In this document: one piece after another, positions 4,235 through 39,510 of the stretch | Numbering within the stretch: the stretch's first letter is position 1 | Layout of the letters: every line of letters begins with the position of its first letter | NCBI GenBank assembly: GCA_036524255.1 | Contig: DATDCP010000463.1 | Span: 1 to 44,589 of the forward strand | Length of the DNA stretch: 44,589 nt | From: Chitinophagaceae bacterium | GTDB lineage: Bacteria; Bacteroidota; Bacteroidia; Chitinophagales; Chitinophagaceae | Direction of reading: 5' to 3' | The notes under the pieces: model-generated | Told to the model about the DNA's origin: nothing | Seen by the model: only the letters and a program-made list of their open reading frames with translations | Database searches by the model: none | Translations under genes and position numbers: made by a program

Positions 4235-6220
4235 CTATTCCAAAACAACAAAACGTGTAGTAAGTGTTTCCTGGTTTATTTTTAATAAGGCATTATATAC
4301 GCCAGGCTGCCAATTTTCATTGGTCTCGGCTGTAAATATATTTGTGCCTTTTTTAAGCATTTGATTTATCACTGAAACTGTTCGGCCCTGCATATCGACA
4401 AATAAAATTTTTGCCTGTGTATCCGATGATGAGGTTATACTCATTTGAAATTTTCCACGCACCGGGTTTGGCGAAATTGTAATACCTGTCTTTAATGATG
4501 ATTTTGTATCAATTCTTAAAATACGACTGTATGAAAAAGAGCCATCCTGGTTTATCATTCTAATTCGAAACTCAACAAATGAAGAAGCTCCAAATGGAAG
4601 ATCATAATTAAAATTGTAAGTGGCATCTTCTTTTAAATTGCCATTAGCAGAGACTGTTCCTGCATCAACAAACCCTCCGCCATTTATGCTTGATTCAACT
4701 ACAAAAGATCTTACAGTTGAATTATTCGTCACAGTCCATTGCAATTCAGCTTTTTTATCACCTGAATTAAGGACTCCTGAAAAAGATCTGAACCTTGCAG
4801 GAAGTACGTTACAAGTGGTGTCTCTTAGAATAGTTATGGTATCGGTTGCATAAGCATTACAACCTGCCATCAATCTTTGTGTTACAATATATGTTCCAGG
4901 CTGATTCACTTGTATCCAGCTACCAGAAGGATGTGTATAAACGATATTACCTCCGATAGTAGACCACGAATAAACAGAAGTTGAATGTGGATTCGCAACA
5001 TAAATATCACTTACTATGGTGTCAGCCATTCCACAAAAAACAGGAAGTTCTGCAGCTAAATCAGCTCTTGGAGCCAAGAATAGATCAATAGGAGCAACAA
5101 AGTCTTTCAACTCTGCAGTAAATGATGAAGATGCCCTTGTTTTTACAACAAGCCTGTTAAATGGTGATCCGCAGACATCTCCTCCTAATAAGGTTACAGG
5201 ATCAAGTCCAAGTTTGGAAAGGTTAACTGAAAATTCCATGAATTGATCCTTACCATAGTTAACTGCCATACTATTATCCTGCAACACTGTTTGAAAAGGA
5301 CCTGCCCATGTATTGGTATTGCTACCTAAACCTGTATAAAATGCCCCGGCAGTTTTTGGTAAAATACTTGCATAACCATAAACTGCACCTGCACTGGCAC
5401 CATCAAATTGGCCTGACCAATTGAATTGTGTAGGTATTATACTTAATGCAGATTGATGTACCCAGATACGGGCTTCTATATTTGTCAAGGTAGAACTCTG
5501 ATACTGTCCTGTTAAAATAATATCTCCGGGTCTTGTAATATTTCCAGCTGCATCAAACTGCCAGCTGGTGTGTCCTGCATCAGCACCATAACCATAAAAT
5601 TTGCCTGTTGCCCTGTCATAATAAATATCTGTCTGGTACATCTCAAAATCGAAATAACGGTTACCAGTTGTATTATCTAATGACAGACCACCAAACATCC
5701 ATAAAGAGTCAGTAACATTTGGCCCAGCTCTTCTTACATGCATGAAAACGTCAAGTATATCATTTTTGTCAGGAATTGATTGTACTCCACCTGTCCAATC
5801 TGCGGGACTCATTCCATTTTTATCTGATCCAGCAGTAAAAACAGATGAATCATTTCCATGATAATCCCTTACAAATATTGCATCAAGCCAAAGCCTGTTG
5901 TTTACAACAGTAAACTTCGGCCTGCTCATTGAACGAAATAAAGGAGCCATTCTTTTTGGCCAGGGGGAGACGTCGCTTAAATAACCAGCAACAACGGATG
6001 CAGCACCGGTAGTATCGATCACAAAAAATCCAGTTCCGGCGGTACCATTATTAAACCAATCATCATTTCCGCTTTGTACGAAACCATTGAAATAGTTTGC
6101 CCTTAGATCGGCATCTACTCCAAATGCGGCCTTAATAATTGGCGTGGTAATTTGTGCGGAAATAAAGACCGAAAAAAATACCACCCCTATAACAGTGAGT
6201 AAAATTTGTTTCATAAGCAT
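4235..6220 (-). CDS. Secreted protein of unknown function with FN3-like module and T9SS C-terminal sorting domain
   Basis: Signal peptide ..VVFFSVFISAQ. The C-terminus has ELQWTV..FVVESSINGGGF..FRIRMINQDGSFSYSRIL, then ISPNPVRGKF.. ..GVYNALLKINQETLTTRFVVLE, which is the Por_Secre_tail pattern. Confidence 0.75.
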   Translation of the reverse strand: MLMKQILLTVIGVVFFSVFISAQITTPIIKAAFGVDADLRANYFNGFVQSGNDDWFNNGTAGTGFFVIDTTGAASVVAGYLSDVSPWPKRMAPLFRSMSRPKFTVVNNRLWLDAIFVRDYHGNDSSVFTAGSDKNGMSPADWTGGVQSIPDKNDILDVFMHVRRAGPNVTDSLWMFGGLSLDNTTGNRYFDFEMYQTDIYYDRATGKFYGYGADAGHTSWQFDAAGNITRPGDIILTGQYQSSTLTNIEARIWVHQSALSIIPTQFNWSGQFDGASAGAVYGYASILPKTAGAFYTGLGSNTNTWAGPFQTVLQDNSMAVNYGKDQFMEFSVNLSKLGLDPVTLLGGDVCGSPFNRLVVKTRASSSFTAELKDFVAPIDLFLAPRADLAAELPVFCGMADTIVSDIYVANPHSTSVYSWSTIGGNIVYTHPSGSWIQVNQPGTYIVTQRLMAGCNAYATDTITILRDTTCNVLPARFRSFSGVLNSGDKKAELQWTVTNNSTVRSFVVESSINGGGFVDAGTVSANGNLKEDATYNFNYDLPFGASSFVEFRIRMINQDGSFSYSRILRIDTKSSLKTGITISPNPVRGKFQMSITSSSDTQAKILFVDMQGRTVSVINQMLKKGTNIFTAETNENWQPGVYNALLKINQETLTTRFVVLE

Positions 6221-27839: not shown

Positions 27840-28526
27840 TTATTTAAAAATAGACTCATTAACTCCTTTGTTTATTAGATACTCAGTGTATGTGATCTCT
27901 ACTTTTCCCTTTTTGTTTTTAAGATTATCATCTGGCTTTTTTTCAGCCCCATCATCATAATCGAATGTAACCCCCTTTGGCAATTTATAATCCTTTGTAT
28001 TAAAAGAAAAAATGACTTTATCAGGTAAGCTATATTCTATGTATTTGCCATAGCTCATTTCCAGTTCATAAGTACCATTATCTCTTGTGGTGTTTTTCGC
28101 CTTTTTTATCAATTCTGTTTTTTCATCAATATAAAGCGTAGATAAAACAATCTCAGAGTTTTCATCTGATGGCAATAGCTTGAGAATTCTTAATCCAGTA
28201 GAGGACTCAGTACCAGCATCAACTATTTCATAATTTCCGGACCCGGAAAGAAATTTAGCAAGATTAATATTGACCGATCCTTTTGGAATAAACGAGATAC
28301 CATTTTCATTTACAATTCTCATTCTATCGGGTTTTTTATAATACACTTTCACTGATGCGATCGGCGCCTTTATAAAAACCACGTTTGTTTTCAATTTCCC
28401 TTTGGCAGTGTAATCATTTACCTTTTCCAGTTTTGCTTTTATTTTATTTATCAGCTCTTGCGGAGTTTGCGCCGAAAGTTGAAAGAACAAAAACAAAGCA
28501 AAAAATAGTATGAATATTTTTTTCAT
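27840..28526 (-). CDS. LolA-like periplasmic (outer-membrane lipoprotein-sorting-like) protein
   Basis: Signal peptide, then ..EKVNDYTAKGKLKTNV...VKVYYKKPDRMRIV.., which resembles LolA-like half-barrel proteins. Its start is 1 nt after the permease stop. Confidence 0.6.
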   Translation of the reverse strand: MKKIFILFFALFLFFQLSAQTPQELINKIKAKLEKVNDYTAKGKLKTNVVFIKAPIASVKVYYKKPDRMRIVNENGISFIPKGSVNINLAKFLSGSGNYEIVDAGTESSTGLRILKLLPSDENSEIVLSTLYIDEKTELIKKAKNTTRDNGTYELEMSYGKYIEYSLPDKVIFSFNTKDYKLPKGVTFDYDDGAEKKPDDNLKNKKGKVEITYTEYLINKGVNESIFK

Positions 28527-29410: not shown

Positions 29411-30319
29411 TCAATGAGATGTAAGAGATAAAAAGTAATCTTCCAATGAATTTTTTTTCTGAATTGAAAATATATCCTGTTTCATTTCTCCCATTTGCTG
29501 AACAAAAGCCGGCACTTCCTCTCTTTTCATTTGCATAATGATCTTTTGCCCGTTTACTGAAATGATCTTATTTGCCCAGGATGTTTGCTTCAGCAGCAAT
29601 TCAAATTCATTTGCAGATCTGGTTTCAACTTCTATTCTCGATTGTTCAGGATTCAATAATTCATTCATATTTCCCTCTGCAATTTTTTTCCCTTTATGAA
29701 TAATCAGTAATGAATCTGCTACTTGTTCCATTTCACTTAATAAATGAGAGGAAATAAATACAGTTTTTCCCAGATCCTTACTCAGGTGATTAATTAGCTG
29801 TCGTATATCGGCGATCCCTTGTGGATCCAGTCCATTCATAGGTTCATCTAAAATAATTAGATCAGGATCATGAACCAGGGCTACAGCGATCCCCAATCTT
29901 TGTTTCATTCCCTGTGAATATGTTTTTATTTTACTATCTGCTCTTTCAGCGAGGCCCACTTTCCCCAGTTTATCCATTAATTGTTTGCGTTTAAGTTTTA
30001 ATCCGCTCATTGTTGCAAACAAATTCAAGTTCTCAATTGCAGTAAGATATTTATACAGATCAGGTTTTTCAATTATGGCACCTATTCGTTGCAAAATTTC
30101 TTTTCTATGTGTGGAAAGATCAAGGTCAAAAATTCTTATTTCACCATTGGCAGGTCTAATTAAGCTCAGCAGCATTCGTATAGTAGTAGATTTTCCTGCA
30201 CCGTTTTGACCCAAAAAACCATAAACACCGTTCTCTTTTACAGTAAAAGTCAAATTATCAACTGCGATGATTTCGTTGAATGATTTCGTTAATCCACTAA
30301 CATCAATGATTGAAGACAT
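29411..30319 (-). CDS. ABC transporter ATP-binding protein (ABC-2 exporter type)
   Basis: Walker A GQNGAGKST, signature YSQGMKQRLGIA, Walker B LIILDEP, H-loop SSH. Confidence 0.92.
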   Translation of the reverse strand: MSSIIDVSGLTKSFNEIIAVDNLTFTVKENGVYGFLGQNGAGKSTTIRMLLSLIRPANGEIRIFDLDLSTHRKEILQRIGAIIEKPDLYKYLTAIENLNLFATMSGLKLKRKQLMDKLGKVGLAERADSKIKTYSQGMKQRLGIAVALVHDPDLIILDEPMNGLDPQGIADIRQLINHLSKDLGKTVFISSHLLSEMEQVADSLLIIHKGKKIAEGNMNELLNPEQSRIEVETRSANEFELLLKQTSWANKIISVNGQKIIMQMKREEVPAFVQQMGEMKQDIFSIQKKNSLEDYFLSLTSH

Positions 30320-30338
30320 ATAGTAATAGTACGAAATT

Positions 30339-30346
30339 CAAAATTA
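30339..30346 (-). promoter_or_regulatory. Candidate -7 box (TAATTTTG) for the ABC operon
   Basis: The plus-strand CAAAATTA is TAATTTTG on the minus strand, 20 nt upstream of the ATG at 30319. I found no clear -33 TTG. Confidence 0.35.
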
Positions 30347-30413
30347 GCTCAAAAATTCTTCATTGAGAATGAGTCCTTTCAAAATAAGATAACAAAAATC
30401 CCCTTGGAAAAAC

Positions 30414-30520
30414 TTGCATGCGCTGATTGCACATATTACGTTTGTGATGTCGTAGAATAATGGAAGCATCGAAGGAAAAATTACGATAAACGATCCGTTA
30501 CTAATTCAACCCTAAGGAAA
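30414..30520 (+). promoter_or_regulatory. Cassette 0 promoter plus conserved leader
   Basis: TTG at 30414..30416 and TACGTTTG at 30437..30444. The leader has ATCCGT at 30493..30498 and TCAACCCTAAGG immediately before the ATG. Confidence 0.6.
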
Positions 30521-31144
30521 ATGAAAAAAATTATTACCCTGTTATTAATTAGTTTTTCAATAACCGCTCAATCAATCAACGCACAATTAGACCTGGCTTT
30601 TGTTTCCAATTTCAGTGCTAACCCAACTAATTCCTCCAATCGACTTACCTGGACAATCGCAAGTAATCAGAGTGTGAGTAGTTTCGAAGTTGAAAAAAGC
30701 ACCAATGGAAAAGACTTTAAGACTATTGCAATATTGGAAGTAACAGAAGAATTTAATACAGAAAATTATACATATACTGATACTGCGATCAGTGCAGACA
30801 AAATAATGTATCGTCTTAGAGTATTGATCAGGAGGAGCCAGCATGATTTTTATTCAAGGATTATTATAGTCAAGTCCAAAACGAAGCTTGATGACAATAT
30901 CAGGATCATGGAAAACCCTGTAAAGGATAAGCTTTTTTTCAGTTACAATTCTGCAAAAGTGCAAGTAGCAGATATCAAAATATATAGCCTGACAGGAAAA
31001 ATTTTAGTTAATCAAAAAATAAGCAGTTTTAAAGGAAATAATTTAATAACTATTCCATTAAGCTCAGTCTTTGCACCTGGAATGTATGTGATTGAAATTA
31101 ATACTGATATTTTAAACCAAACCGCAAAATTCGTAAAACAATAA
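30521..31144 (+). CDS. 'Headless' T9SS surface protein: signal peptide + FN3-like module + T9SS tail
   Basis: 207 aa. LTWTIASNQSVSSFEVEKSTNGKDFKTIA..MYRLRVL, then ENPVKDKLFF..GMYVIEINTDILNQTAKFVKQ. It is a paralog of the tails of the next three genes. Confidence 0.8.
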   Translation: MKKIITLLLISFSITAQSINAQLDLAFVSNFSANPTNSSNRLTWTIASNQSVSSFEVEKSTNGKDFKTIAILEVTEEFNTENYTYTDTAISADKIMYRLRVLIRRSQHDFYSRIIIVKSKTKLDDNIRIMENPVKDKLFFSYNSAKVQVADIKIYSLTGKILVNQKISSFKGNNLITIPLSSVFAPGMYVIEINTDILNQTAKFVKQ

Positions 31145-31190
31145 CAGCTTTTTCATAAAATACTAATACAAGCCATTAGCCAAAAGAAAA

Positions 31191-31217
31191 AGGCCCTTTA
31201 TAAAAAGGGCCTTTTTT
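31191..31217 (+). terminator. Intrinsic terminator of cassette 0
   Basis: Stem AGGCCCTT/AAGGGCCT followed by tttttt. The stem is related to the GGCCC stems ending the 3' elements. Confidence 0.8.
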
Positions 31218-31425
31218 ATGTACAAACAGATCTAGCAACAAATACATGCTCTACACATAAACACAAGATCATCATTTGTGAATGCAGTTGAATAATTCGT
31301 TGATCTACGAACTGCAATGATAAAAGACATAAAGTAATTATACTAAGTTCAAAATTAGTTTTAAAAAAAACATTATTGAAAATGAAACTATTGAGATCTT
31401 ACTTAAAAAAAACCCGTAGAAAAAC

Positions 31426-31607
31426 TTGCAACAATTAAATGTGCATATTACGTTTGTGTCAGCGTAAGAACAATCCAAAGTATCCACGAAAAACAACGAT
31501 AAGCAATCCGTACTGATACCTCTTCTAAAAGAACCATTTTCCGGTAACATTACGGCTGCTTCAAAAAATTCGAAAAATCGATCCGTTTAATATTCAACCC
31601 TAAGAAA
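31426..31607 (+). promoter_or_regulatory. Cassette A promoter plus ~150-nt conserved leader
   Basis: TTG at 31426..31428 and TACGTTTG at 31449..31456. AATCCGT at 31505..31511 and ATCCGT at 31581..31586. Stem CCGTACTGATACC (31508..31520) with GGTAACATTACGG (31543..31555). TCAACCCTAAG lies before the ATG. Confidence 0.6.
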
Positions 31608-32726
31608 ATGAAAAAGATCTTTACCCTTTGCACCCTTGTAACATTGTCACTTTTTGCGAATAACTCATATTCGCAGATTAATGTAAACTTTGATAATGGG
31701 TTTGCCCCCCTTCAAGCCGATTGCTGGCAGTTCACTAACATGATGCATGCAACCACCCCTTCCGGTTATGTTATTAATGGGAATGGAAGTGCATACTCAG
31801 AGCCACCAGTAAGTTCCGACAGTTTACGTATTATGCGTACACCGTTCCTCGATTTTGGAACTGTTGTCGATGTATCTTTTGTTTACAGAATTAGCAGCAA
31901 TCTAAATGGCCTTGCAACAAGGTTTATAAAACTTGACCTGGTGAATTCTGCAGGAGTAGTTGTTCAGACTCTTGACAGCTTTAACATCAGTAATGCCGCT
32001 ACAACTTCTACTTTATACAGCCAGACGTTTGCGGTTAATACTCCAGGTATGTATAGATTTTCTCTTACCATGGGTGGAAAAACAGGAGCTGGTAATGTAA
32101 GAACATCAATTGATGATCTAAATGTAAATGCCCCGGTAATAGGCTGTGACGCTGTCGAAGTAAACAAGGTATTGCCTGTTCATCTTATCGCTTTCCAGGG
32201 TAACCTTAATAAGAATAATAAAGTAACTCTTAACTGGACTGTTGCTGATAATGAGATCGCCGGAAATTTTGAAGTAGAAAGAAGTTTTAACGGAAGAGAT
32301 TTTACAACGGTTGGTTTTGTATTTGCTTCTGAAAAAATGGGAACTGAAAACTATATGTTTTATGAAACAATAAGTGGTACAGATAAAGTGATGTATCGTC
32401 TTAAAATGATCGATAAACATCATGAAGTTAGTTATTCAAGAATACTGATCTTCCAGTTGAAATCTACGACCACTAATAATATCAAGATCATCGGTAACCC
32501 TGTAAACGATAAACTTACTTTCAGCTACACTTCTGCAGGCACACAAATGGTTGATGTAAAAGTTTACGATATAAGTGGCAGAATATTATTAAATAATAAA
32601 GTAAATAGCCTGGAAGGCAGCAACGTGATAAGCCTGCCATTAAGTTCAACTTTCAAGGCTGGTATGTATGTGGTAGAAGTAAATAACGGAACCGAAGTTC
32701 ATTCATCAAAATTTGTAAAGCAATAA
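31608..32726 (+). CDS. T9SS surface protein with ~170-aa beta-rich head + shared FN3-like/T9SS tail
   Basis: Signal peptide ..LFANNSYSQ and a head of unknown family. The tail is almost identical to that of the next gene. Confidence 0.85.
   Translation: MKKIFTLCTLVTLSLFANNSYSQINVNFDNGFAPLQADCWQFTNMMHATTPSGYVINGNGSAYSEPPVSSDSLRIMRTPFLDFGTVVDVSFVYRISSNLNGLATRFIKLDLVNSAGVVVQTLDSFNISNAATTSTLYSQTFAVNTPGMYRFSLTMGGKTGAGNVRTSIDDLNVNAPVIGCDAVEVNKVLPVHLIAFQGNLNKNNKVTLNWTVADNEIAGNFEVERSFNGRDFTTVGFVFASEKMGTENYMFYETISGTDKVMYRLKMIDKHHEVSYSRILIFQLKSTTTNNIKIIGNPVNDKLTFSYTSAGTQMVDVKVYDISGRILLNNKVNSLEGSNVISLPLSSTFKAGMYVVEVNNGTEVHSSKFVKQ
32171..32726 (+). repeat. Copy 1 of a 556-bp near-identical direct repeat (partner at 34474..35029)
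   Basis: Both copies run from ATTGCCTGTTCATCTTAT.. to the stop codon with no indels. By eye I count roughly 20 substitutions. Confidence 0.9.
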
Positions 32727-32799
32727 AACATTATTAACTCAATTAACTTTTCATTTCTTAGATAATACTTCTATTTCATTGAAAAAAATCGAATTGAAT

Positions 32800-32829
32800 A
32801 AAAGCCGAAAAAAATTCGGCTTTTATTTT
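32800..32829 (+). terminator. Intrinsic terminator of cassette A, inside a 126-nt insertion
   Basis: Stem AAAGCCGAA/TTCGGCTTT followed by tattttaaaa. Confidence 0.75.
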
Positions 32830-32852
32830 AAAAAAAGAAATTAAATGTTCAA

Positions 32853-33036
32853 ACAAGCCATCTTCCCGAAATCTGGAGGGAGCAAAGGAAGATAGGAACA
32901 AGCAATCCTCGTCAATCAAAAAGATCTCCTGATACTAAGTCAAAGATTCTGACGACTGGTTAAACCCTTGAAAAATTTTCATACACTTAGAGTATCAACG
33001 GAGACGGGCCCTATTTCTATAGGGCCTTTTTTATTT
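32853..33036 (+). ncRNA. Conserved structured 3' element, copy A (candidate 3'-UTR-derived or stand-alone small RNA), ending in an intrinsic terminator
   Basis: Nearly identical to 35038..35220. Hairpin ATCTTCC/GGAAGAT; long-range helix TCTCC-TGATAC-TAAG with CTTA-(GA)-GTATCA-(AC)-GGAGA; terminator GGCCCTAT ttct ATAGGGCC + tttttt at 33007..33036. Confidence 0.45.
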
Positions 33037-33238
33037 ATAATAGATCAGGACAAAAGAACATATCTTCTTTACAATAAAAATCAGATCATTATTTGTGTTG
33101 CCTGTTGAATGATTTTTTAATACACATCTTAAATGTTACAAGACTTAAGCATTAGACTAAGTTCTAAAATTTGTTTTAAAAAAATTTGTTGAAAATGAGT
33201 CTATTGAAATTTTACTTGAAAAAAACCCTTAGAAAAAG

Positions 33239-33412
33239 TTGCAACAATTAAATGTGTGTATTACGTTTGTATCAGCGTAAAGAATCCACCGATCCCCGAA
33301 AAACTCCGATAAGTAATCCGTACTGATACCTCCTCTAAAAAAAATTTCCCGGTAACATTACGGTAGCTTCTAAAGTTAGACACAACAATCCGTCATACAT
33401 CAACCCTAAGAA
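33239..33412 (+). promoter_or_regulatory. Cassette B promoter plus ~140-nt conserved leader
   Basis: TTG at 33239..33241 and TACGTTTG at 33262..33269. AATCCGT at 33315..33321 and 33387..33393. Stem 33318..33330 with 33351..33363. TCAACCCTAAG lies before the ATG. Confidence 0.6.
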
Positions 33413-35029
33413 ATGAAAAAGATTTTTACACTTTCCGTTCTTGCCATCTCTGCCACCTTCTTAAATGCGCAGGTAGTACTTAACGAGATCTATACCGATC
33501 CAGGTAATGGCAAAAATGAATTCTTTGAATTCTACAATACAAGTTCAGACCCTGTACCACAAAACATGGACAACTATACCTTGGTAGCTTATTATGAGGA
33601 ACCAGGTAAAACTGGTTTCTACGTATTGGATCTTCCCAATCAAACAGTAGCTTCTAAAGGTTTTTATGTAGGTTCATCTGCAAACCCATTTAAAGTGCAG
33701 GGACAGACAAATGTTGCAGCGGATTTTGTATGGAACGCAATTCCTGCCGGTGGTTACCTGAAAAAATTCGAAAGATCAGGAGCTATTTACACTGAGGTCG
33801 CTGTTCCTGCAAACCTTAATGATCTTTTTGTGGCACGTTCTGGCACGGGTTGCATACAACATATTTTAGTTTTCCAAAATGGATTACTTATTAATGGAAT
33901 TGTTACGGGAACAAATTTTGCCATTTTGCCAACTTATCTTAAAACAATGCCCCCATTGTTTGTAGATATGAGCGGTGCTTCAATAGACTTTACAGTAAAT
34001 TTTAATTCTTTTAATGATAACCAGTTCGAATATGTGAATTCAGCTGCAGGTAATGACAATGGCTATATGCGTCTTAGCGATGGTAAGTGTGGTGTATGGG
34101 CTAAAAGTAGCTCTGCGGTAAATCATACTCCCGGTCAATCAAATGGATCGGCTTCTGGTTCAGCCGGAGATCTTTCGATCAGCAACTACATTACTGAATT
34201 AGAAAGCGATTTTACGAAATCCTTGTTAGTGTATAATGTCACTTCCACAACCTTATCAGCGTTCCCGGTTACAATCCAGGTATATGAAGACTTGGGAATA
34301 ATAGGACAATTGGATGCGGCTGATCTAATAGTCGATTCAAGAGTGCTTTATACTTTAACTGAAGGTGACCAGTTTGTGATCATACCTTCCAGAACTTATC
34401 CGGCAATTATTGTTGCAAGAACTCCTTCGGGATGCTTTGACCAGGTTATTGCAGTACCTAATAGCTTAAAGCTATTGCCTGTTCATCTTATTGCTTTCCA
34501 GGGAAACCTTAATAAGAATAATAAAGTAACTCTTAACTGGACTATTGCTGATAATGAGATCGCCAACAATTTTGAAGTAGAAAGAAGTTTTAACGGAAGA
34601 GACTTTACAACGGTTGGTGTTGTATTCGCTTCTGAAAAAATGGGAACTGAAAACTATATGTTTTATGAAACAACAACTGGTACAGATAAAGTGATGTATC
34701 GTCTTAAAATGATCGATAAACATCATGAAGTTAATTATTCAAGAATACTGATCTTCCAGTTGAAATCTACGACCACTAATAATATCAAGATCATTGGTAA
34801 CCCTGTAAACGATAAACTTACTTTTAGCTACACTTCTGCAGGCACACAAATGGTTGATGTAAAAGTTTACGATATAAGTGGCAGAGTATTATTAAATAAT
34901 AAAGTAAACAGCCTGGAAGGCAGCAACGTGATAAGCTTACCACTAAATTCAACTTTCAAGGCTGGTATGTATGTGGTAGAAGTAAATAACGGAACCGAAC
35001 TTCAATCATCAAAATTTGTAAAGCAATAA
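33413..35029 (+). CDS. T9SS surface protein with lamin-tail-domain (LTD)-like head + shared FN3-like/T9SS tail
   Basis: The signal peptide is followed by VVLNEIYTDPGNGKNEFFEFYNTSSDPVPQNMDNYTLVAYY, an LTD-type pattern. The tail LNWTIADNEIANNFEVERSFNGRDF..YRLKMIDKHHEV.. GNPVNDKLTF..GMYVVEVNNGTELQSSKFVKQ completes the protein. Confidence 0.85.
   Translation: MKKIFTLSVLAISATFLNAQVVLNEIYTDPGNGKNEFFEFYNTSSDPVPQNMDNYTLVAYYEEPGKTGFYVLDLPNQTVASKGFYVGSSANPFKVQGQTNVAADFVWNAIPAGGYLKKFERSGAIYTEVAVPANLNDLFVARSGTGCIQHILVFQNGLLINGIVTGTNFAILPTYLKTMPPLFVDMSGASIDFTVNFNSFNDNQFEYVNSAAGNDNGYMRLSDGKCGVWAKSSSAVNHTPGQSNGSASGSAGDLSISNYITELESDFTKSLLVYNVTSTTLSAFPVTIQVYEDLGIIGQLDAADLIVDSRVLYTLTEGDQFVIIPSRTYPAIIVARTPSGCFDQVIAVPNSLKLLPVHLIAFQGNLNKNNKVTLNWTIADNEIANNFEVERSFNGRDFTTVGVVFASEKMGTENYMFYETTTGTDKVMYRLKMIDKHHEVNYSRILIFQLKSTTTNNIKIIGNPVNDKLTFSYTSAGTQMVDVKVYDISGRVLLNNKVNSLEGSNVISLPLNSTFKAGMYVVEVNNGTELQSSKFVKQ
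34474..35029 (+). repeat. Copy 2 of the 556-bp near-identical direct repeat (partner at 32171..32726)
   Basis: See copy 1. The encoded tails differ at about ten amino-acid positions. Confidence 0.9.
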
Positions 35030-35037
35030 CCTTAATA

Positions 35038-35220
35038 ACAAGCCATCTTCCCGAAATCTGGAGGGAGCAAAGGAAGATAGTACAAGCAATCCTCGTCAAT
35101 CAAAAAGATCTCCTGATACTAGCCAAAGATTCTGACGACCGGTTAAAACCTTAAAGATTTTCATACACTTAGAGTATCAACGGAGACGGGCCCTATTTCT
35201 ATAGGGCCTTTTTATTTTTT
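35038..35220 (+). ncRNA. Conserved structured 3' element, copy B, starting 9 nt after the stop codon and ending in an intrinsic terminator
   Basis: Same helices as copy A. The terminator stem is 35189..35196 with 35201..35208, followed by a T-run to 35220. Confidence 0.45.
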
Positions 35221-35272
35221 ACGTTTAAACACAAAAAAAGACAGTGTATCGTAGTTTTTCATCGCATATTGC

Positions 35273-35469
35273 TTGCTTTCCCAATAAACACGTAGTAGAT
35301 TTGTTAAGAAGATTTCGTCAAATATCCGACGTAAAAACCATCTAAGATAATCCGTACTGATACTCACTCTAGAAACAATTCCTTTTCATTACGGCATTTT
35401 CAGCTGGTGGTTAAGATCAGAGATCATTAGACCTTTTTAATCCGTTTTTGATAATTCAACCCTAAGGAA
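35273..35469 (+). promoter_or_regulatory. Cassette C promoter plus ~165-nt leader
   Basis: TTG at 35273..35275 and TAGATTTG at 35296..35303. AATCCGT at 35349..35355 and 35439..35445. Stem CCGTACTG (35352..35359) with CATTACGG (35387..35394). TTCAACCCTAAGG lies before the ATG. Confidence 0.55.
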
Positions 35470-37089
35470 ATGAAAAAATTTTTTACTCTTTGTGTGCTAA
35501 TATGCATTGTGATCGTATCAAGATCCCAGGCTGTATTAAACGAGGTTTACCCGCAACCTGGAAACGGTTATCATGAATTCTTCGAGCTTTACAACGAATC
35601 TGACACTGCTGAAAATCTAGATAATTATACAGTTGTCATTTATTATGAAGAAGGGACTACATCCGGATTCTATGTACTTGATCTTCCTACCGCATCTGTA
35701 GCAGCACATGGTTATTATGTAGGCGCTTCGCAAACTTCTTTTGATATTCAGGCTCAGCTGGGGCAAACCGCAAATTTCAGTTGGAACTCAATGCCTGCTG
35801 GTGGTTCATTAACGAAATGGCAAAAGAATGGATCTTCTTATACATCAGTTGCAGTACCTGCAAACCTTAATGATCTTTTAGTAAAAATTAATGGTGGTGG
35901 TGGTGGTGTATTTCATGTTTTTGTTTATAAAAATGGAATTATAGTAAATGGTCTCATTGGAGGTATTAGCACAAGCGTTGTACCGGCTTATATAAAAACA
36001 ATGCCGAATTTACCTGTCGATATGAGTGGCAGTTCACCTGACTTTATTATCAACTTCAATACTACCGCTGATAACAGTTTAGAATACCTGACTAATTCCG
36101 TAGGTACAAACAATGGTTACTTCCGCAGTTCTGATGGATTATGTGGTGATTGGTTAAAAAGTGATTCTCCGGGACAACATACACCGGGAGCAACAAATGG
36201 CGCATCACTAAGTTTAATTTCTTCAAACCAATTTTCAATTGGGGCTGTTATATCTGCTTACACCTTTGATCTAAGCAAATCTCTGCTCACTTATAATATA
36301 TCATCAGCTCCTGCAGGTGCCTTTCCTCTTACAGTTGAGATATATGCTGATCTCGGTATTGCGAGTGAATGGGATATAAACGACAGCCTTATTGATTTGA
36401 GAACCATCCTCAGTGCATCTTCCGGTAACCAGGATATAGTATTATCATCATTAAATACTGCTGTAATTGTTGTTGTAAAATCAGCAAATGATTGTTATAA
36501 CAAAAATCTTCCCGTTGCAAGCTATTTGTCAGTATTACCAGTTGAGTTGATCAGCTTCCAGGGCAACATAAACAAAAGCAATAAGGTATCACTTGAATGG
36601 AAAGTGATGAGTAATGAAACAATTGATCGTTTTGAAATACAAAGGAGCTATGATGGGAATGAATTTAAAACAATTGGAATCGTATTTGCAAGCGAGAAAA
36701 AAGATAATGAAGACTACATGTTCTATGAAACGATCAACAGTTTTGATAAAGCAATGTATCGTCTTAAAATGATTGACAAGAACAATAAGGTCACTTACTC
36801 CAAAATATTGGTGTTTCAGTCAAAAGCTGCAACTACCAGCAATATCAAGATCATCGGAAACCCTGTGAATGATAAACTCACCTTCAATTATTCATCTTTT
36901 ACAGAACAGGTAATTAATGTAAAGATTTATGACATGACAGGCAGGGTTATCATGAGCAATAAAATAAATAGCCTTGAAGGAAGTAATACTATATGTTTTC
37001 CTTTGGCCTCAAATTTTAAAACGAATATGTATGTACTAGAAGTAAGTAATGGATCTGATATTCAAACAGCAAAATTCATAAAGCAATAA
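35470..37089 (+). CDS. T9SS surface protein with LTD-like head (diverged paralog) + FN3-like/T9SS tail
   Basis: AVLNEVYPQPGNGYHEFFELYNESDTAENLDNYTVVIYY. The tail is LEWKVMSNETIDRFEIQRSYDGNEF..YRLKMIDKNNKV..GNPVNDKLTF..MYVLEVSNGSDIQTAKFIKQ. Confidence 0.85.
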   Translation: MKKFFTLCVLICIVIVSRSQAVLNEVYPQPGNGYHEFFELYNESDTAENLDNYTVVIYYEEGTTSGFYVLDLPTASVAAHGYYVGASQTSFDIQAQLGQTANFSWNSMPAGGSLTKWQKNGSSYTSVAVPANLNDLLVKINGGGGGVFHVFVYKNGIIVNGLIGGISTSVVPAYIKTMPNLPVDMSGSSPDFIINFNTTADNSLEYLTNSVGTNNGYFRSSDGLCGDWLKSDSPGQHTPGATNGASLSLISSNQFSIGAVISAYTFDLSKSLLTYNISSAPAGAFPLTVEIYADLGIASEWDINDSLIDLRTILSASSGNQDIVLSSLNTAVIVVVKSANDCYNKNLPVASYLSVLPVELISFQGNINKSNKVSLEWKVMSNETIDRFEIQRSYDGNEFKTIGIVFASEKKDNEDYMFYETINSFDKAMYRLKMIDKNNKVTYSKILVFQSKAATTSNIKIIGNPVNDKLTFNYSSFTEQVINVKIYDMTGRVIMSNKINSLEGSNTICFPLASNFKTNMYVLEVSNGSDIQTAKFIKQ

Positions 37090-37099
37090 AAATATTTAA

Positions 37100-37236
37100 G
37101 AGCACATCCGTACCGTCAAACAAAGTCTCCCGATACTAAGCCAAAGAATCTGTAGATTGGTTAAACCCTTGAAGTATTTCATACACTTAGAGTATCAACG
37201 GAGACGGGCCCTATTTCCATAGGGCCTTTTTTATTT
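37100..37236 (+). ncRNA. Conserved structured 3' element, copy C (lacks the first hairpin), ending in an intrinsic terminator
   Basis: Has ATCCGT at 37106..37111 and the long-range helix TCTCC-CGATAC-TAAG with CTTAGAGTATCAACGGAGA. The terminator is GGCCCTAT ttcc ATAGGGCC + T-run, and the T-run overlaps the stop of the convergent wHTH gene. Confidence 0.4.
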
Positions 37237-37518
37237 TTGTGTAAGGTAAGCCTGCAGATTTTTTACATACTCTTCGAATGCTTTGATCCCGATTGACGTT
37301 ATTTTACAAATTGTTTGAGGATAATTGTCTTTAAATTGTTTTATTACCTCGATATAACCTACTTCTTTTAATTTTTGAATTTGCACACTTAGGTTTCCGG
37401 CTGTGGCATTTGTGTTTTCCTTTAAAAAAGTAAACTCTGCTTCTTTTACACTTATAAGAAGTGACATCACAGCCAATCGTAGTTGAGAATGCAATATGGG
37501 ATCAAGATCTTTAAACAT
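37231..37518 (-). CDS. Small winged-helix transcriptional regulator (HTH_34/ArsR-MarR-like)
   Basis: 95 aa. LDPILHSQLRLAVMSLLISVKEAEFTFLKENTNATAGNLSVQIQKLKEVGYIEV is a typical wHTH pattern. It overlaps the upstream gene by 8 nt. Confidence 0.75.
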   Translation of the reverse strand: MFKDLDPILHSQLRLAVMSLLISVKEAEFTFLKENTNATAGNLSVQIQKLKEVGYIEVIKQFKDNYPQTICKITSIGIKAFEEYVKNLQAYLTQK

Positions 37519-38182
37519 TCAATTGGGCTTGTTCCTTTTTATACATTCGATATTCTTTTTCCATAATAACCCCCGGTACCAGCCAGGCAAGTACAGCTGA
37601 TGCTGCAGTTAACAAAAGATCTATTTTGATTGATGTATATATAGCAACAATACAACAGATCCAGCAAAAAATGCCGCCCCACAGCATTGGTTTAAATTTA
37701 CATGCTGCGCCAGTTATAAATGTTGGCATACCATATAGCATTAAAAAAAGCGGACCGACAAATTCATAAAACCCATAAGAAACACCATTACCCGTTGCTG
37801 GTTTATATTGATTGGTCCATGCACCCCATTCATTAAAAATATTATTGCAAATAAGTATCAGTAAAAAAATACAAATCCCAAATCCAAGCCATATATAATC
37901 CAAATATGGATCATCATAAGATTTTACTTTTCGTTCTTTTTTCTCCCTTATACTTATTAATATTTGTGGAATGATGGCTACAAGAGTAAGCAAATAAATA
38001 TCAAATGGAAGTCTGTACGCAAAATGAACCTCTGATAATCTTACCAAAGAACATATTGCGATAACTGCTCCCCACATGATAGCGCCGATACCGGTATCAT
38101 GGTAAGATTCTTTGGCCTTATTGATCATCATCGTGATCAGGTGCAGGCTTTCTTGTTCTGTTAATTTTTTTTCCTGTTCCAT
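37511..38182 (-). CDS. Integral membrane protein, unknown function (paralog of the next gene)
   Basis: N-terminal amphipathic EQESLHLITMMINKAKESY followed by about 5-6 hydrophobic spans. Confidence 0.7.
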   Translation of the reverse strand: MEQEKKLTEQESLHLITMMINKAKESYHDTGIGAIMWGAVIAICSLVRLSEVHFAYRLPFDIYLLTLVAIIPQILISIREKKERKVKSYDDPYLDYIWLGFGICIFLLILICNNIFNEWGAWTNQYKPATGNGVSYGFYEFVGPLFLMLYGMPTFITGAACKFKPMLWGGIFCWICCIVAIYTSIKIDLLLTAASAVLAWLVPGVIMEKEYRMYKKEQAQLNV

Positions 38183-38186
38183 AAAC

Positions 38187-38777
38187 TTATTTGTTTTGGA
38201 GTTTTTCTTTTGCGCTCAATACATGACCGGGGATAATGTAAGATATCAATATAGCCAATGCCATCAACAATAATTGCCAGTCAAACGATACATAGACCCC
38301 AATTACCATAATAGGTAAACATAAAAGTCCCGTCCATTTTAAGAGGGGGAATTGCATTAATGCTCCCATAAAAAAGCAGGTAACTGCATATACAAGTATA
38401 TACAATGGAAACGAAATAGCCCACAAATCATACTTACCGAAGAAAAAAGCGAGCCCGGTATAAAGAATACCCTGGCTAATGCCAAAGACCTTCATGGTTT
38501 CTCCCACAAAAGTTTTTACAGCAATTTTCCTGGAATCCCTTACCCCTTTAATAATACTTGCAATTGCTCCTATCCAAACGAGGTTCCAGGCAAGATAGGG
38601 TTGCTCAAAGTCGGTGAACTTCTTTAGACCGAAATTCAAAAGAGCCGCTATGAAGATCAACCAGCCCCAAAGCAAAAGGTAAAAAGAATTATTTGCTACA
38701 TCCTGTTTTGCTTTTTCAATCATTGATTGAATAAGATGCAAGCTTTGTTCGGCAGAAAATTTTTGGTTGTTTTCCAT
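38187..38777 (-). CDS. Integral membrane protein, unknown function (paralog of the previous gene)
   Basis: N-terminal AEQSLHLIQSMIEKAKQDV followed by about 5 hydrophobic spans. There is a 4-nt gap to the next gene. Confidence 0.7.
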   Translation of the reverse strand: MENNQKFSAEQSLHLIQSMIEKAKQDVANNSFYLLLWGWLIFIAALLNFGLKKFTDFEQPYLAWNLVWIGAIASIIKGVRDSRKIAVKTFVGETMKVFGISQGILYTGLAFFFGKYDLWAISFPLYILVYAVTCFFMGALMQFPLLKWTGLLCLPIMVIGVYVSFDWQLLLMALAILISYIIPGHVLSAKEKLQNK

Positions 38778-38794
38778 AATGGTTAATTATAAAA

Positions 38795-38830
38795 ATGAAA
38801 ACCAAATGCCCTGTTAGAAACAGGGCATTT
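38795..38830 (-). terminator. Probable intrinsic terminator after the 221-aa gene
   Basis: Stem AAATGCCCTG/CAGGGCATTT (10 bp), followed on the minus strand by ggttttcattttt. Confidence 0.55.
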
Positions 38831-38844
38831 AATTATTTAAACAA

Positions 38845-39510
38845 CTATTTATACAGAGATAAGAAATAACCTATTTGATTTTTTCCCCAATTAGGATGAA
38901 TTGAAGTTTCTGGCTTGAATGTTTCAAAAAGTTTCTGTGCTTTTTCAAAAAGTATTTTTGCTTCTTCTTTGCTTCCTCCAAATTGTTCAGGTGTGTAATA
39001 TTTATCTTGTGCCTCTAATAAATATACCCTGGGATTATCAGGATTCATTTTTTTTGCTTCATCCAGCATCATCGTTGCTTCGGGACCGTAAGTCATATAA
39101 CGGTTCGTAGGATCACCTAACATTCTCAATGTTGCGATCATTTTCTTTACAATAAATATTTCAGAGCTTTTCTTCATTAACTCTTCAGCTTTTTTTATTT
39201 GCTTATCTGCTTTATCAGCATAAGGATCTGTTTTATCAGCTTTCGCTGCCATCATATCACTACCGGCGCCAACAATAGTACCAGCACTGGCATTGCAATA
39301 AGCAGCATAATAATAAGCAAGCCCCTGGTTTTTTTCTGCATCTGCAATTCGCTCAAACGCATTTGCTAGTTCGATATAGTCTTCAGCTGTCTGTACGCTA
39401 TCAAGCATAACTATTTTACTCTCCATCGCTTTTACAAACTTGTCTGGCATTTGTGCAAATGAAAAGCTCGCAACAAATATTGCGGATAAAATAAAAATTG
39501 ACTTTTTCAT
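38845..39510 (-). CDS. Secreted all-helical (TPR-like) protein of unknown function
   Basis: Signal peptide MKKSIFILSAIFVASFSFAQ and a helical, Ala/Lys/Glu-rich body. It starts 30 nt downstream of the TonB-dependent receptor gene. Confidence 0.65.
   Translation of the reverse strand: MKKSIFILSAIFVASFSFAQMPDKFVKAMESKIVMLDSVQTAEDYIELANAFERIADAEKNQGLAYYYAAYCNASAGTIVGAGSDMMAAKADKTDPYADKADKQIKKAEELMKKSSEIFIVKKMIATLRMLGDPTNRYMTYGPEATMMLDEAKKMNPDNPRVYLLEAQDKYYTPEQFGGSKEEAKILFEKAQKLFETFKPETSIHPNWGKNQIGYFLSLYK

Follow-up and report, generated by a model that had tools for sequence, protein, structure and literature searches.

CpxQ, SroC, DapZ and MicL are enterobacterial small RNAs (sRNAs) derived from 3' untranslated regions (3' UTRs). 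To our knowledge, the Bacteroidota lack Hfq and ProQ, post-transcriptional control in these bacteria is almost unexplored beyond the gut Bacteroides, and nothing is known about RNA-level regulation of the genes for cargo proteins of the type IX secretion system (T9SS). NarS is another 3'UTR-derived sRNA (PMC7038943), and UTR-derived sRNA candidates exist in Bacteroides thetaiotaomicron (PMC7366714). In the literature searched, nothing comparable was found for Chitinophagaceae or for T9SS cargo genes. Here, we describe a structured RNA element from an uncultured soil bacterium of the family Chitinophagaceae, located on a 44,589-nucleotide (nt) stretch of DNA (contig DATDCP010000463.1 of assembly GCA_036524255.1, positions 1 to 44,589), which is referred to as the window at its full length. 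Three copies of the element are present, each on the plus strand, directly 3' of a gene for a T9SS-sorted cargo protein and ending in an intrinsic terminator. A preliminary description of this DNA had proposed a conserved, structured, non-coding element on the plus strand at the 3' ends of several gene cassettes, either an sRNA or a 3'-UTR module, and this proposal survived every test that was run. The element is real and strongly selected, it operates at the RNA level on the plus strand, and it lies outside Rfam.

All three proposed copies were recovered, with 5' ends within 1-10 nt of those first suggested, and the remaining cassette of the array (cassette 0) contributes a vestige:
32852-33036, plus strand: copy A, long type, extending from the boundary AACAAGCC through the T-run of the terminator; 181 bits with the covariance model.
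35037-35220, plus strand: copy B, long type, beginning 8 nt past the stop codon of the gene 33413-35029; 163 bits with the covariance model.
About 37090-37238, plus strand: copy C, C type, without the hairpin H0; 173 bits with the covariance model.
31146-31225, plus strand: vestige in the 3' region of cassette 0, with no core and no helix P1; about 30 bits, from the terminator only.

The covariance model, which comprises 115 homologues, detects exactly three copies in the window, and no other match there has more than 32 bits. Likewise, the 21-mer AGTATCAACGGAGACGGGCCC from the common 3' part occurs three times in the window, against 0.00 occurrences expected by chance. Copies A and B had been called almost identical, and indeed two blocks agree to 100% (32852-32895 = 35037-35080 and 32898-32937 = 35082-35121); both copies sit in a recent duplication that takes in coding sequence as well (about 560 nt, 96% identical). 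The element was further said to be better conserved than coding sequence, which holds for copies B and C with 88% identity over the last 100 nt, compared to 66% in the coding C-terminal regions. As had been described, cassette 0 keeps only ACAAGCCAT and the GGCCC terminator. The latter (AAAAAGGCCCTTTATAAAAAGGGCCTTTTTT, 31187-31216) has A- and T-runs on both sides and is a terminator on both strands, unlike those of copies A-C. The window yielded no match to Rfam 15 at the gathering threshold, in line with the claim that no named family covers the element. In E-value mode over positions 30300-37300 nothing was found on the three copies, the matches falling on the cassette-0 terminator region, the spacer before copy A and coding sequence, and full-text literature searches found no paper on this motif.

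Homologous copies sort into four types built around a common module. From 5' to 3' this module consists of the P1 5' arm (G/A)UCUCC-YGRUAC-UAAG, a variable hairpin P2, a conserved single strand GUUAAAMCCUUGAA..UUUUCAUACA and the P1 3' arm CUUA-GA-GUAUCA-AC-GGAGAC, with the terminator directly after it. In the long type (copies A and B) the module is preceded by the boundary AACAAGCC, the hairpin H0 (CUUCC/GGAAG closing the loop YGAAAUCUGGAGGGAGCRAA) and the linker AAUCCUCGUCAA. The C type has AUCCGUACCGUCAAA in front of the module and is the last copy, adjoining the gene of an HTH_34 regulator, both in the window and in three syntenic contigs (L001-L003). The third type has AUCCUUAUUAUC at this place, and in the short variants, known from eight loci, the inner hairpin is deleted. 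A 29-nt block, UUUUCAUACACUUAGAGUAUCAACGGAGAC, lies half in the loop and half in the P1 3' arm, its single-stranded portion being CAUACACUUAGA. The parts are located as follows:
32858-32895, plus strand: H0 of copy A, with CCATCTTCC, the conserved purine-rich loop CGAAATCTGGAGGGAGCAAA, and GGAAGATAG.
32904-32917, plus strand: conserved linker AATCCTCGTCAATC of copy A.
32924-32939, plus strand: P1 5' arm of copy A (ATCTCC-TGATAC-TAAG).
32976-33005, plus strand: invariant core TTTTCATACACTTAGAGTATCAACGGAGAC of copy A, of which the last 20 nt (32986-33005) are the P1 3' arm.
33006-33036, plus strand: intrinsic terminator of copy A (GGGCCCTAT/ATAGGGCC plus T-run).
Copy B, plus strand: H0 35043-35080, linker 35088-35101, P1 5' arm 35108-35122, core 35158-35187, terminator 35188-35220.
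Copy C, plus strand: linker ATCCGTACCGTCAAAC 37106-37121, P1 5' arm 37125-37140, core 37177-37205, terminator 37206-37238.

The hairpin proposed for copies A and B alone stands in its upper 5 base pairs (bp), CUUCC/GGAAG, which are kept in homologues and appear there in compensated variants (L072 CCATCATCC/GGATGATGG, L082 CTTTC/GAAAG, L060 CTCTTC/GAAGAG), but not in its lower ATC/GAT part. The long-range helix P1, suggested as TCTCC-TGATAC-TAAG pairing with CTTA-GA-GTATCA-AC-GGAGA, is present in the minimum free energy fold of all three copies. Counted per sequence over 115 unique copies, P1 is paired to 89-99%, compared to 26-46% in controls in which the partner was slid by 1-3 columns. Substitutions in the 5' arm at A or C opposite U or G are almost all A>G or C>U, so that G·U pairs are retained (column 91: AU 84, GU 31, other 0; column 83: CG 107, UG 7, other 1; column 86: CG 109, UG 4, other 0; column 101: 99 canonical, 14 wobble, 1 other), and the U and G positions of this arm, which have no wobble option, are nearly fixed. 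On the minus strand, these G·U pairs would turn into A·C mismatches, and such a one-sided, wobble-only pattern is what an RNA helix read on the plus strand is expected to show. In the short variants the 5' arms differ in sequence and register (UCUCCGGAUA, CUCUUUUUGAUA, GUCUUC, CACCGUU), and all of them complement the fixed arm. Furthermore, when the copies are folded one by one, the ensembles of 120 of the 130 unique copies give a probability of more than 0.5 for pairing of the 3' arm with sequence far upstream (mean 0.87), the competing local hairpin having a probability of 0.02. The folding z-scores of the single copies A, B and C are modest, ranging from -1.2 to -2.7.

The terminator GGGCCCTAT/ATAGGGCC with its T-run was called on the plus strand alone, as had been claimed. 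At 33006, 35188 and 37206 it has the 9-bp stem with five G-C pairs and the T5-8 tract of an intrinsic terminator. It abuts the core in every copy, and over the 115 homologues its stem is paired to 99.9%, with 35 AU<->UA double changes at one pair. In a helix kept for its shape alone, both arms drift together. Here, the 3' arm and the loop are frozen and the 5' arm adapts to them, which points to a constraint beyond pairing, on the sequence itself. The succession of a closing helix, a variable hairpin, a highly conserved junction and a terminator immediately after it would also suit a riboswitch-like attenuator, in which P1 and the junction decide on terminator formation and thus control read-through into the following cassette or, at copy C, antisense RNA synthesis into the HTH_34 operon; Listeria and Clostridium are known to possess antisense RNAs that run against a regulator gene and are controlled by a riboswitch. 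We consider this explanation very improbable, as all predicted folds contain the complete, strong terminator, P1 and the terminator occupy separate stretches, and no sequence competing with the terminator stem was seen on inspection by eye only. Moreover, the element comes after and not before the linked genes, and the downstream cassettes have their own promoters.

Relatives of the element were collected in two samples. The first one came from searching 185,579 species genomes for an exact 20-mer, which fixes the 3' arm by construction, and returned 24 stretches in about 20 metagenome-assembled genomes (MAGs) labelled Chitinophagaceae, Chitinophaga, Sphingobacteriales or Bacteroidota. The second one was anchored on the cargo protein only, is therefore unbiased as to the RNA, and comprises 77 metagenome loci with protein identities from 92% to 40%. 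Using nhmmer, 151 matches were obtained, 150 of them with at least 25 bits; 144 were complete enough for extraction (about 128 unique), and these copies occupy the same syntenic locus in about 100 contigs from Chitinophagaceae and Sphingobacteriales MAGs or metagenomes. The 538-amino acid (aa) cargo protein preceding copy B has many homologues, both close and distant, in uncultured Chitinophagaceae MAGs. The contigs L001-L003 carry the element behind the same genes, with proteins 84%, 67% and 57% identical to those of the window. Among 41 copies checked individually, 34 are located 85-258 nt past a T9SS gene ending in ...KF[VI]K[QH]*, and the other seven are in loci of this type as well, where the gene lies farther upstream, is reduced, or is truncated at the locus end. 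As the homologue searches in relatives show, the element is kept far beyond this genome. Its distribution is confined to a single locus within one clade of uncultured bacteria that are Chitinophagaceae-like. A dispersed repeat resembling repetitive extragenic palindromes or miniature inverted-repeat transposable elements (REP/MITE-like) was rejected, as all examinable stretches of the 20-mer scan lie in one locus type with 1-3 copies each.

In the protein-anchored sample, all loci with a cargo protein identity of 51% or more carry the core in an essentially invariant form, and it is absent from 19 of the 20 most distant loci (most protein matches 40-47%). Among carriers, hardly any variation is seen in the block CATACACTTAGAGTATCAACGGAGAC, and most of the few variant blocks belong to visibly decaying copies. 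In seven loci (L010, L014, L015, L018, L021, L072, L082) the core is identical in 29 of 29 positions, while the adjacent HTH_34 genes are 86-96% identical at codon positions 1 and 2 and only 44-62% at position 3; therefore, purifying selection on the core exceeds that on HTH_34 replacement sites. The distant syntenic locus L018, from a Sphingobacteriales groundwater MAG, has an ABC ATPase 57% and an HTH_34 protein 88% identical to those of the window, and its array (4245-4900) is down to one 138-aa protein, which keeps the middle conserved domain and has no T9SS sorting domain. The sequence upstream of the element and the terminator have been replaced there, and GGAGA pairs with a downstream UCUCC instead of the upstream one. 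Since the 29-nt core is nevertheless identical, the sequence itself must be read by something. Loci with cargo proteins of 40-47% identity give only 15-35-bit matches with the covariance model, most of them beside a terminator hairpin, and five of these abut HTH_34; the respective clades carry other conserved pre-terminator blocks. Such blocks are found at matching positions in L090:2060-2250, L093:1910-2100, L096:6400-6590, L104:1770-1965, L085:4480-4640 and L086:7700-7870, one example being AAGTTTAGGCGTTGGATTATTATATAGAGAAC beside HTH_34, and L085 and L086 have a block of roughly 230 nt in common. Thus, a conserved 3' tail seems to be a general property of the locus, with a lineage-specific sequence.

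That copies A and B lie within a recent duplication, and that other relics of the duplication unit are found upstream of cassettes 1 and 2, could suggest a neutral hitch-hiker, i.e., a coding or duplication relic kept similar by recent duplication or gene conversion. This is extremely improbable, as the core is invariant between genomes with near-saturated synonymous sites, there is no detectable likeness to the cassette coding sequences, and the indels are not multiples of three. The preliminary description had itself named the degraded end of an ancestral coding sequence as a way in which its proposal could fail, and this scenario found no support: local alignment to the cassette coding sequences gave z <= 2.2. 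A 10-mer in common with cassette 0, CTTAGAGTAT, was suggestive of such a coding relic and was dismissed by the same whole-element alignment to the four coding sequences. Concerning a small protein gene, no plus-strand ATG is present in copy A. A minus-strand ORF (open reading frame) encoding MK..., starting at the reverse complement of TTTTCAT, was likewise rejected: this ATG-led frame changes between the long and the C type, its start is lost (CAT>TAT) in several lineages, and the indels of the element measure 1-2 nt.

On the plus strand, the array comprises four tandem genes for proteins with a C-terminal type IX secretion sorting domain (Por_Secre_tail), flanked by a divergent ABC-transporter operon on one side and a convergent operon on the other:
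30521-31144, plus strand: cassette 0 gene, Por_Secre_tail.
31608-32726, plus strand: cassette 1 gene, parent of copy A, 372-aa T9SS cargo protein (Por_Secre_tail).
33413-35029, plus strand: cassette 2 gene, parent of copy B, 538-aa protein with a lamin-tail domain (LTD) and Por_Secre_tail.
35470-37089, plus strand: cassette 3 gene, parent of copy C, 539-aa protein with LTD and Por_Secre_tail.
37231-37518, minus strand: gene for an HTH_34 winged-helix regulator of 95 aa at the end of the convergent operon.
32727-32830, plus strand: spacer from the stop codon of the gene 31608-32726 to copy A, with its own terminator at 32800-32829.

The three genes upstream of HTH_34 (37511-39510, minus strand) encode proteins of 223, 196 and 221 aa and are syntenic in every related contig examined. 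The 223-aa protein has no Pfam match, and in related contigs the orthologues of all three are without a Pfam family, so that HTH_34 and three unassigned proteins form a conserved module beside the cargo array. The region upstream of cassette 1 (31315-31366) is 81% identical to the ABC start region (30304-30355), and that upstream of cassette 2 (33178-33280) is 87% identical to the region upstream of cassette 1 (31365-31467). Both are repeats of the start-codon region of the divergent ABC-transporter gene, and therefore the duplication unit spanned the 5' end of the ABC gene through an entire cassette. In contrast to the promoterless attC cassettes of integrons, every cassette here has its own promoter, and the array is fixed between the ABC transporter and the HTH_34 operon in all genomes. 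No recombinase domain was found among the called genes of L001-L003, the flanking ORFs of the window having been only partly scanned with Pfam.

The Bacteroidetes -7 box has the consensus TAnnTTTG (PMC7366714). It occurs five times on the plus strand of 30300-37300, once before each of the four cassettes and once as a chance match in the T-run of copy C, and across all loci it is found within 110 nt upstream of 111 of 116 cassette 5'-UTR motifs, 105 of them at 51-56 nt. Within 80 nt upstream of the element it occurs in only 2 of 80 long-type and none of 43 C-type copies. The simplest reading is therefore that the element forms the 3' UTR of the gene preceding it. Copy B and all C-type copies begin 8-20 nt past the stop codon. 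Copy A had been suspected to be a separate transcript behind an independent terminator. This terminator (32800-32829) exists and is part of a conserved spacer, a homologue of which, with the hairpin AAGCCGAAA..TTTCGGCTTTT, precedes 29-33 of the 80 long-type copies (about 40%); a separate transcript is not favoured, as a sensibly placed -7 box is lacking in the 123 copies. The spacer begins with ..ACTTTTCATTTCTTAGATAATAC, and its start loosely resembles the core (TTTTCAT..CTTAGA.A.), a resemblance that is unscored by nhmmer. The spacer terminator is the main argument for an independent sRNA gene with its own non-canonical or alternative-sigma promoter, parked behind each cassette: the element is fully conserved behind it nonetheless, the 5' boundary AACAAGCC is kept with and without the spacer, and several copies per genome are present, as with sibling sRNAs. 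Still, we hold an independent gene to be improbable, because 121 of 123 copies lack TAnnTTTG at a plausible distance, a promoter of copy B or the C-type copies would fall inside the conserved coding end, and the core is found in this locus type only.

The leaders of cassettes 1-3 (31449-31555, 33262-33363 and 35296-35394) have a canonical TAnnTTTG and, about 53 nt downstream, the motif AATCCGTACTGATAC, for which CATTACGG, located about 30 nt farther downstream, is a possible pairing partner. This 5' UTR of roughly 170 nt is conserved across all related loci and persists as AATCCGTACTGTTGAC...CATTACGG in distant loci without the 3' core; it is a second, older candidate RNA element.

Copy C and the convergent HTH_34 gene overlap at the T-run of the former and the stop codon of the latter, and the distance between a core copy and the last aligned HTH_34 codon is 22-39 nt in 68 of 76 loci. 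On the minus strand, the hairpin of copy C is followed by GUCUCCGUUGAUAC and not by a U-run. Transcripts of the HTH_34 operon may read antisense through copy C and would then be complementary to all copies. This neighbourhood raises the question of a DNA-level site, with the block (ATAC-N7-GTAT) serving as an operator or roadblock for the adjacent HTH_34 or as a homology tract for cassette recombination. The proximity of one copy to the gene end, the 85-100% identity of HTH_34 across loci and an invariant sequence with a short palindrome, which would suit a DNA-binding protein, speak for it. Nevertheless, there is little likelihood of a site in DNA: the wobble-only pattern of the P1 5' arm is strand-specific and sensible for RNA alone, and the block is always fused to a plus-strand terminator that an operator would not need. 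It is located at gene 3' ends, 110-260 nt from the next -7 box, with none upstream of cassettes 0 and 1, and five loci have HTH_34 at 85-88% identity but no core. A recombination tract, in turn, fails to explain the conservation between species.

We tentatively favour, at a little short of an even chance, a co-transcribed 3'-UTR module, in which the frozen 29-nt block is a recognition site partly masked by P1 that controls the fate of the cargo mRNA, and which may release a sibling sRNA. For this module we infer co-transcription with the gene, recognition in trans and a regulatory outcome. Transcription would start at the promoter of the cassette, proceed past the stop codon and, in about 40% of the long-type copies, read through a first, weaker terminator, and the transcript would end at the strong intrinsic terminator of the element. 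The RNA is predicted to fold into an optional H0, a P1 of roughly 16 bp enclosing the variable hairpin and the conserved single strand, and a terminator stem abutting P1. Its working part would be the block UUUUCAUACACUUAGAGUAUCAACGGAGAC, recognised in a sequence-specific manner by a factor acting in trans (a protein that binds RNA, or a second RNA), with P1 masking part of the block. The likely outcome would be a coordinated post-transcriptional control of the paralogous cargo mRNAs via stability or processing of their 3' ends. A stable 3' fragment of 140-185 nt may be set free and work as a 'sibling' sRNA derived from the 3' UTR.

Several points weigh against the co-transcribed module. The pair counts refer to sequences and not to evolutionary events, and two-sided covariation in P1 is absent among the 115 copies, because the 3' arm never varies. 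RNAalifold on the gapped 115-sequence alignment did not recover P1 and returned only a 4-bp local AUAC/GUAU hairpin in the core, to which alignment gaps interrupting the columns of the 5' arm may contribute. The roughly 40% of long-type copies behind another terminator need read-through for co-transcription. For a partner in trans, no recurrent complementary site was found in about 0.85 Mb of related loci and none above chance in the window. Finally, all source genomes are uncultured MAGs.

A pairing of the 3' tail with the 5' UTR or start region, seen by eye between the core and AATCCGTACTGATAC or CCCTAAGAAAATGAAAA and reminiscent of icaR, turned out to be no better than chance. With RNAduplex on both strands of the window, the leader and start sites ranked 7th and 8th with -17.8 and -17.7 kcal/mol, against a background of -9.5 ± 3.2 and a best chance site of -23.5, and Smith-Waterman alignment of the core to the 5' UTR and start against shuffles gave z <= 1.6. 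Besides, the 5'-UTR motif already has CATTACGG to pair with, and it is retained in distant loci without the 3' core, both of which speak against this pairing. The best chance duplex site (27841-27900) was discarded as unconserved, with one related match at no more than two mismatches.

The absence of a target and of an own promoter would also agree with a purely cis-acting 3'-end module, a compound terminator, insulator or stabiliser between the cassettes and before the HTH_34 operon, with no partner and no sRNA. A strong terminator abuts P1 in every copy, and the copies lie between tandem promoters or close to the HTH_34 end at the distance given above. Such a module is possible but rather unlikely, since 29 invariant nucleotides are not needed for a stabiliser or terminator, whose helices covary freely, as the terminator stem does here, whereas the P1 3' arm remains unchanged while its partner drifts and in L018 even relocates; besides, a plain terminator suffices for cassette 0. 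As an extension of the co-transcribed module, to which we give a small chance, the block may dock a dedicated RNA-binding factor that makes the fate of the cargo mRNAs depend on type IX secretion or on the state of the cell surface, and the released tails may cross-regulate the paralogues and, via copy C, the HTH_34 operon. If this holds true, it would be the first such post-transcriptional circuit for T9SS cargo and the first functional sRNA or UTR family in Chitinophagaceae. If the block is a docking site for a protein or RNA, it would represent a new regulatory family for a widespread soil lineage, and if it is only part of an elaborate terminator, it would show how tandem surface-protein cassettes are insulated from each other. 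In each case the element is a sharply defined handle, with a 29-nt invariant sequence and a testable helix, in 2-4 copies on fast-evolving surface-protein paralogues beside a very conserved regulator operon.

With the orphan structured-RNA motifs in Rfam of the Weinberg/Breaker type (PMC5737381, PMC8632094) the element shares conservation, a predicted helix and a narrow phylogeny. Unlike these, it has no Rfam model, it resides at gene 3' ends instead of 5' leaders or free intergenic regions, and its covariation is one-sided and not two-sided. The sibling sRNAs Qrr1-5, LhrC1-5 and OmrA/B likewise come in several near-identical copies with their own terminators and a common invariant core. However, those are free-standing genes with promoters, whereas the copies described here are promoterless and tied to paralogous ORFs. 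The cis-regulatory 3' UTRs of Staphylococcus aureus icaR and Salmonella hilD are similar in being long, conserved and structured and in possibly controlling stability or translation, but the icaR 3' UTR pairs with its own 5' UTR, for which the window gives no more than a chance signal. The closest likeness is to the 3'UTR-derived sRNAs CpxQ, SroC, NarS, DapZ and MicL: the element follows directly past the stop codon or a conserved spacer, uses the intrinsic terminator of the mRNA and contains the only strong one, has a seed-like conserved stretch just 5' of this terminator, and its non-coding sequence is more conserved than the adjacent coding sequence. It differs from them in that its block comprises 29 nt and is half buried in a helix and that 2-4 copies per locus are found on tandem paralogues; as no canonical -7 box lies upstream of it, only the processing route of origin would fit. 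Therefore, the element is best described as a new family within a known category, the bacterial 3'-UTR regulatory RNAs and 3'UTR-derived sRNAs, with a candidate function.

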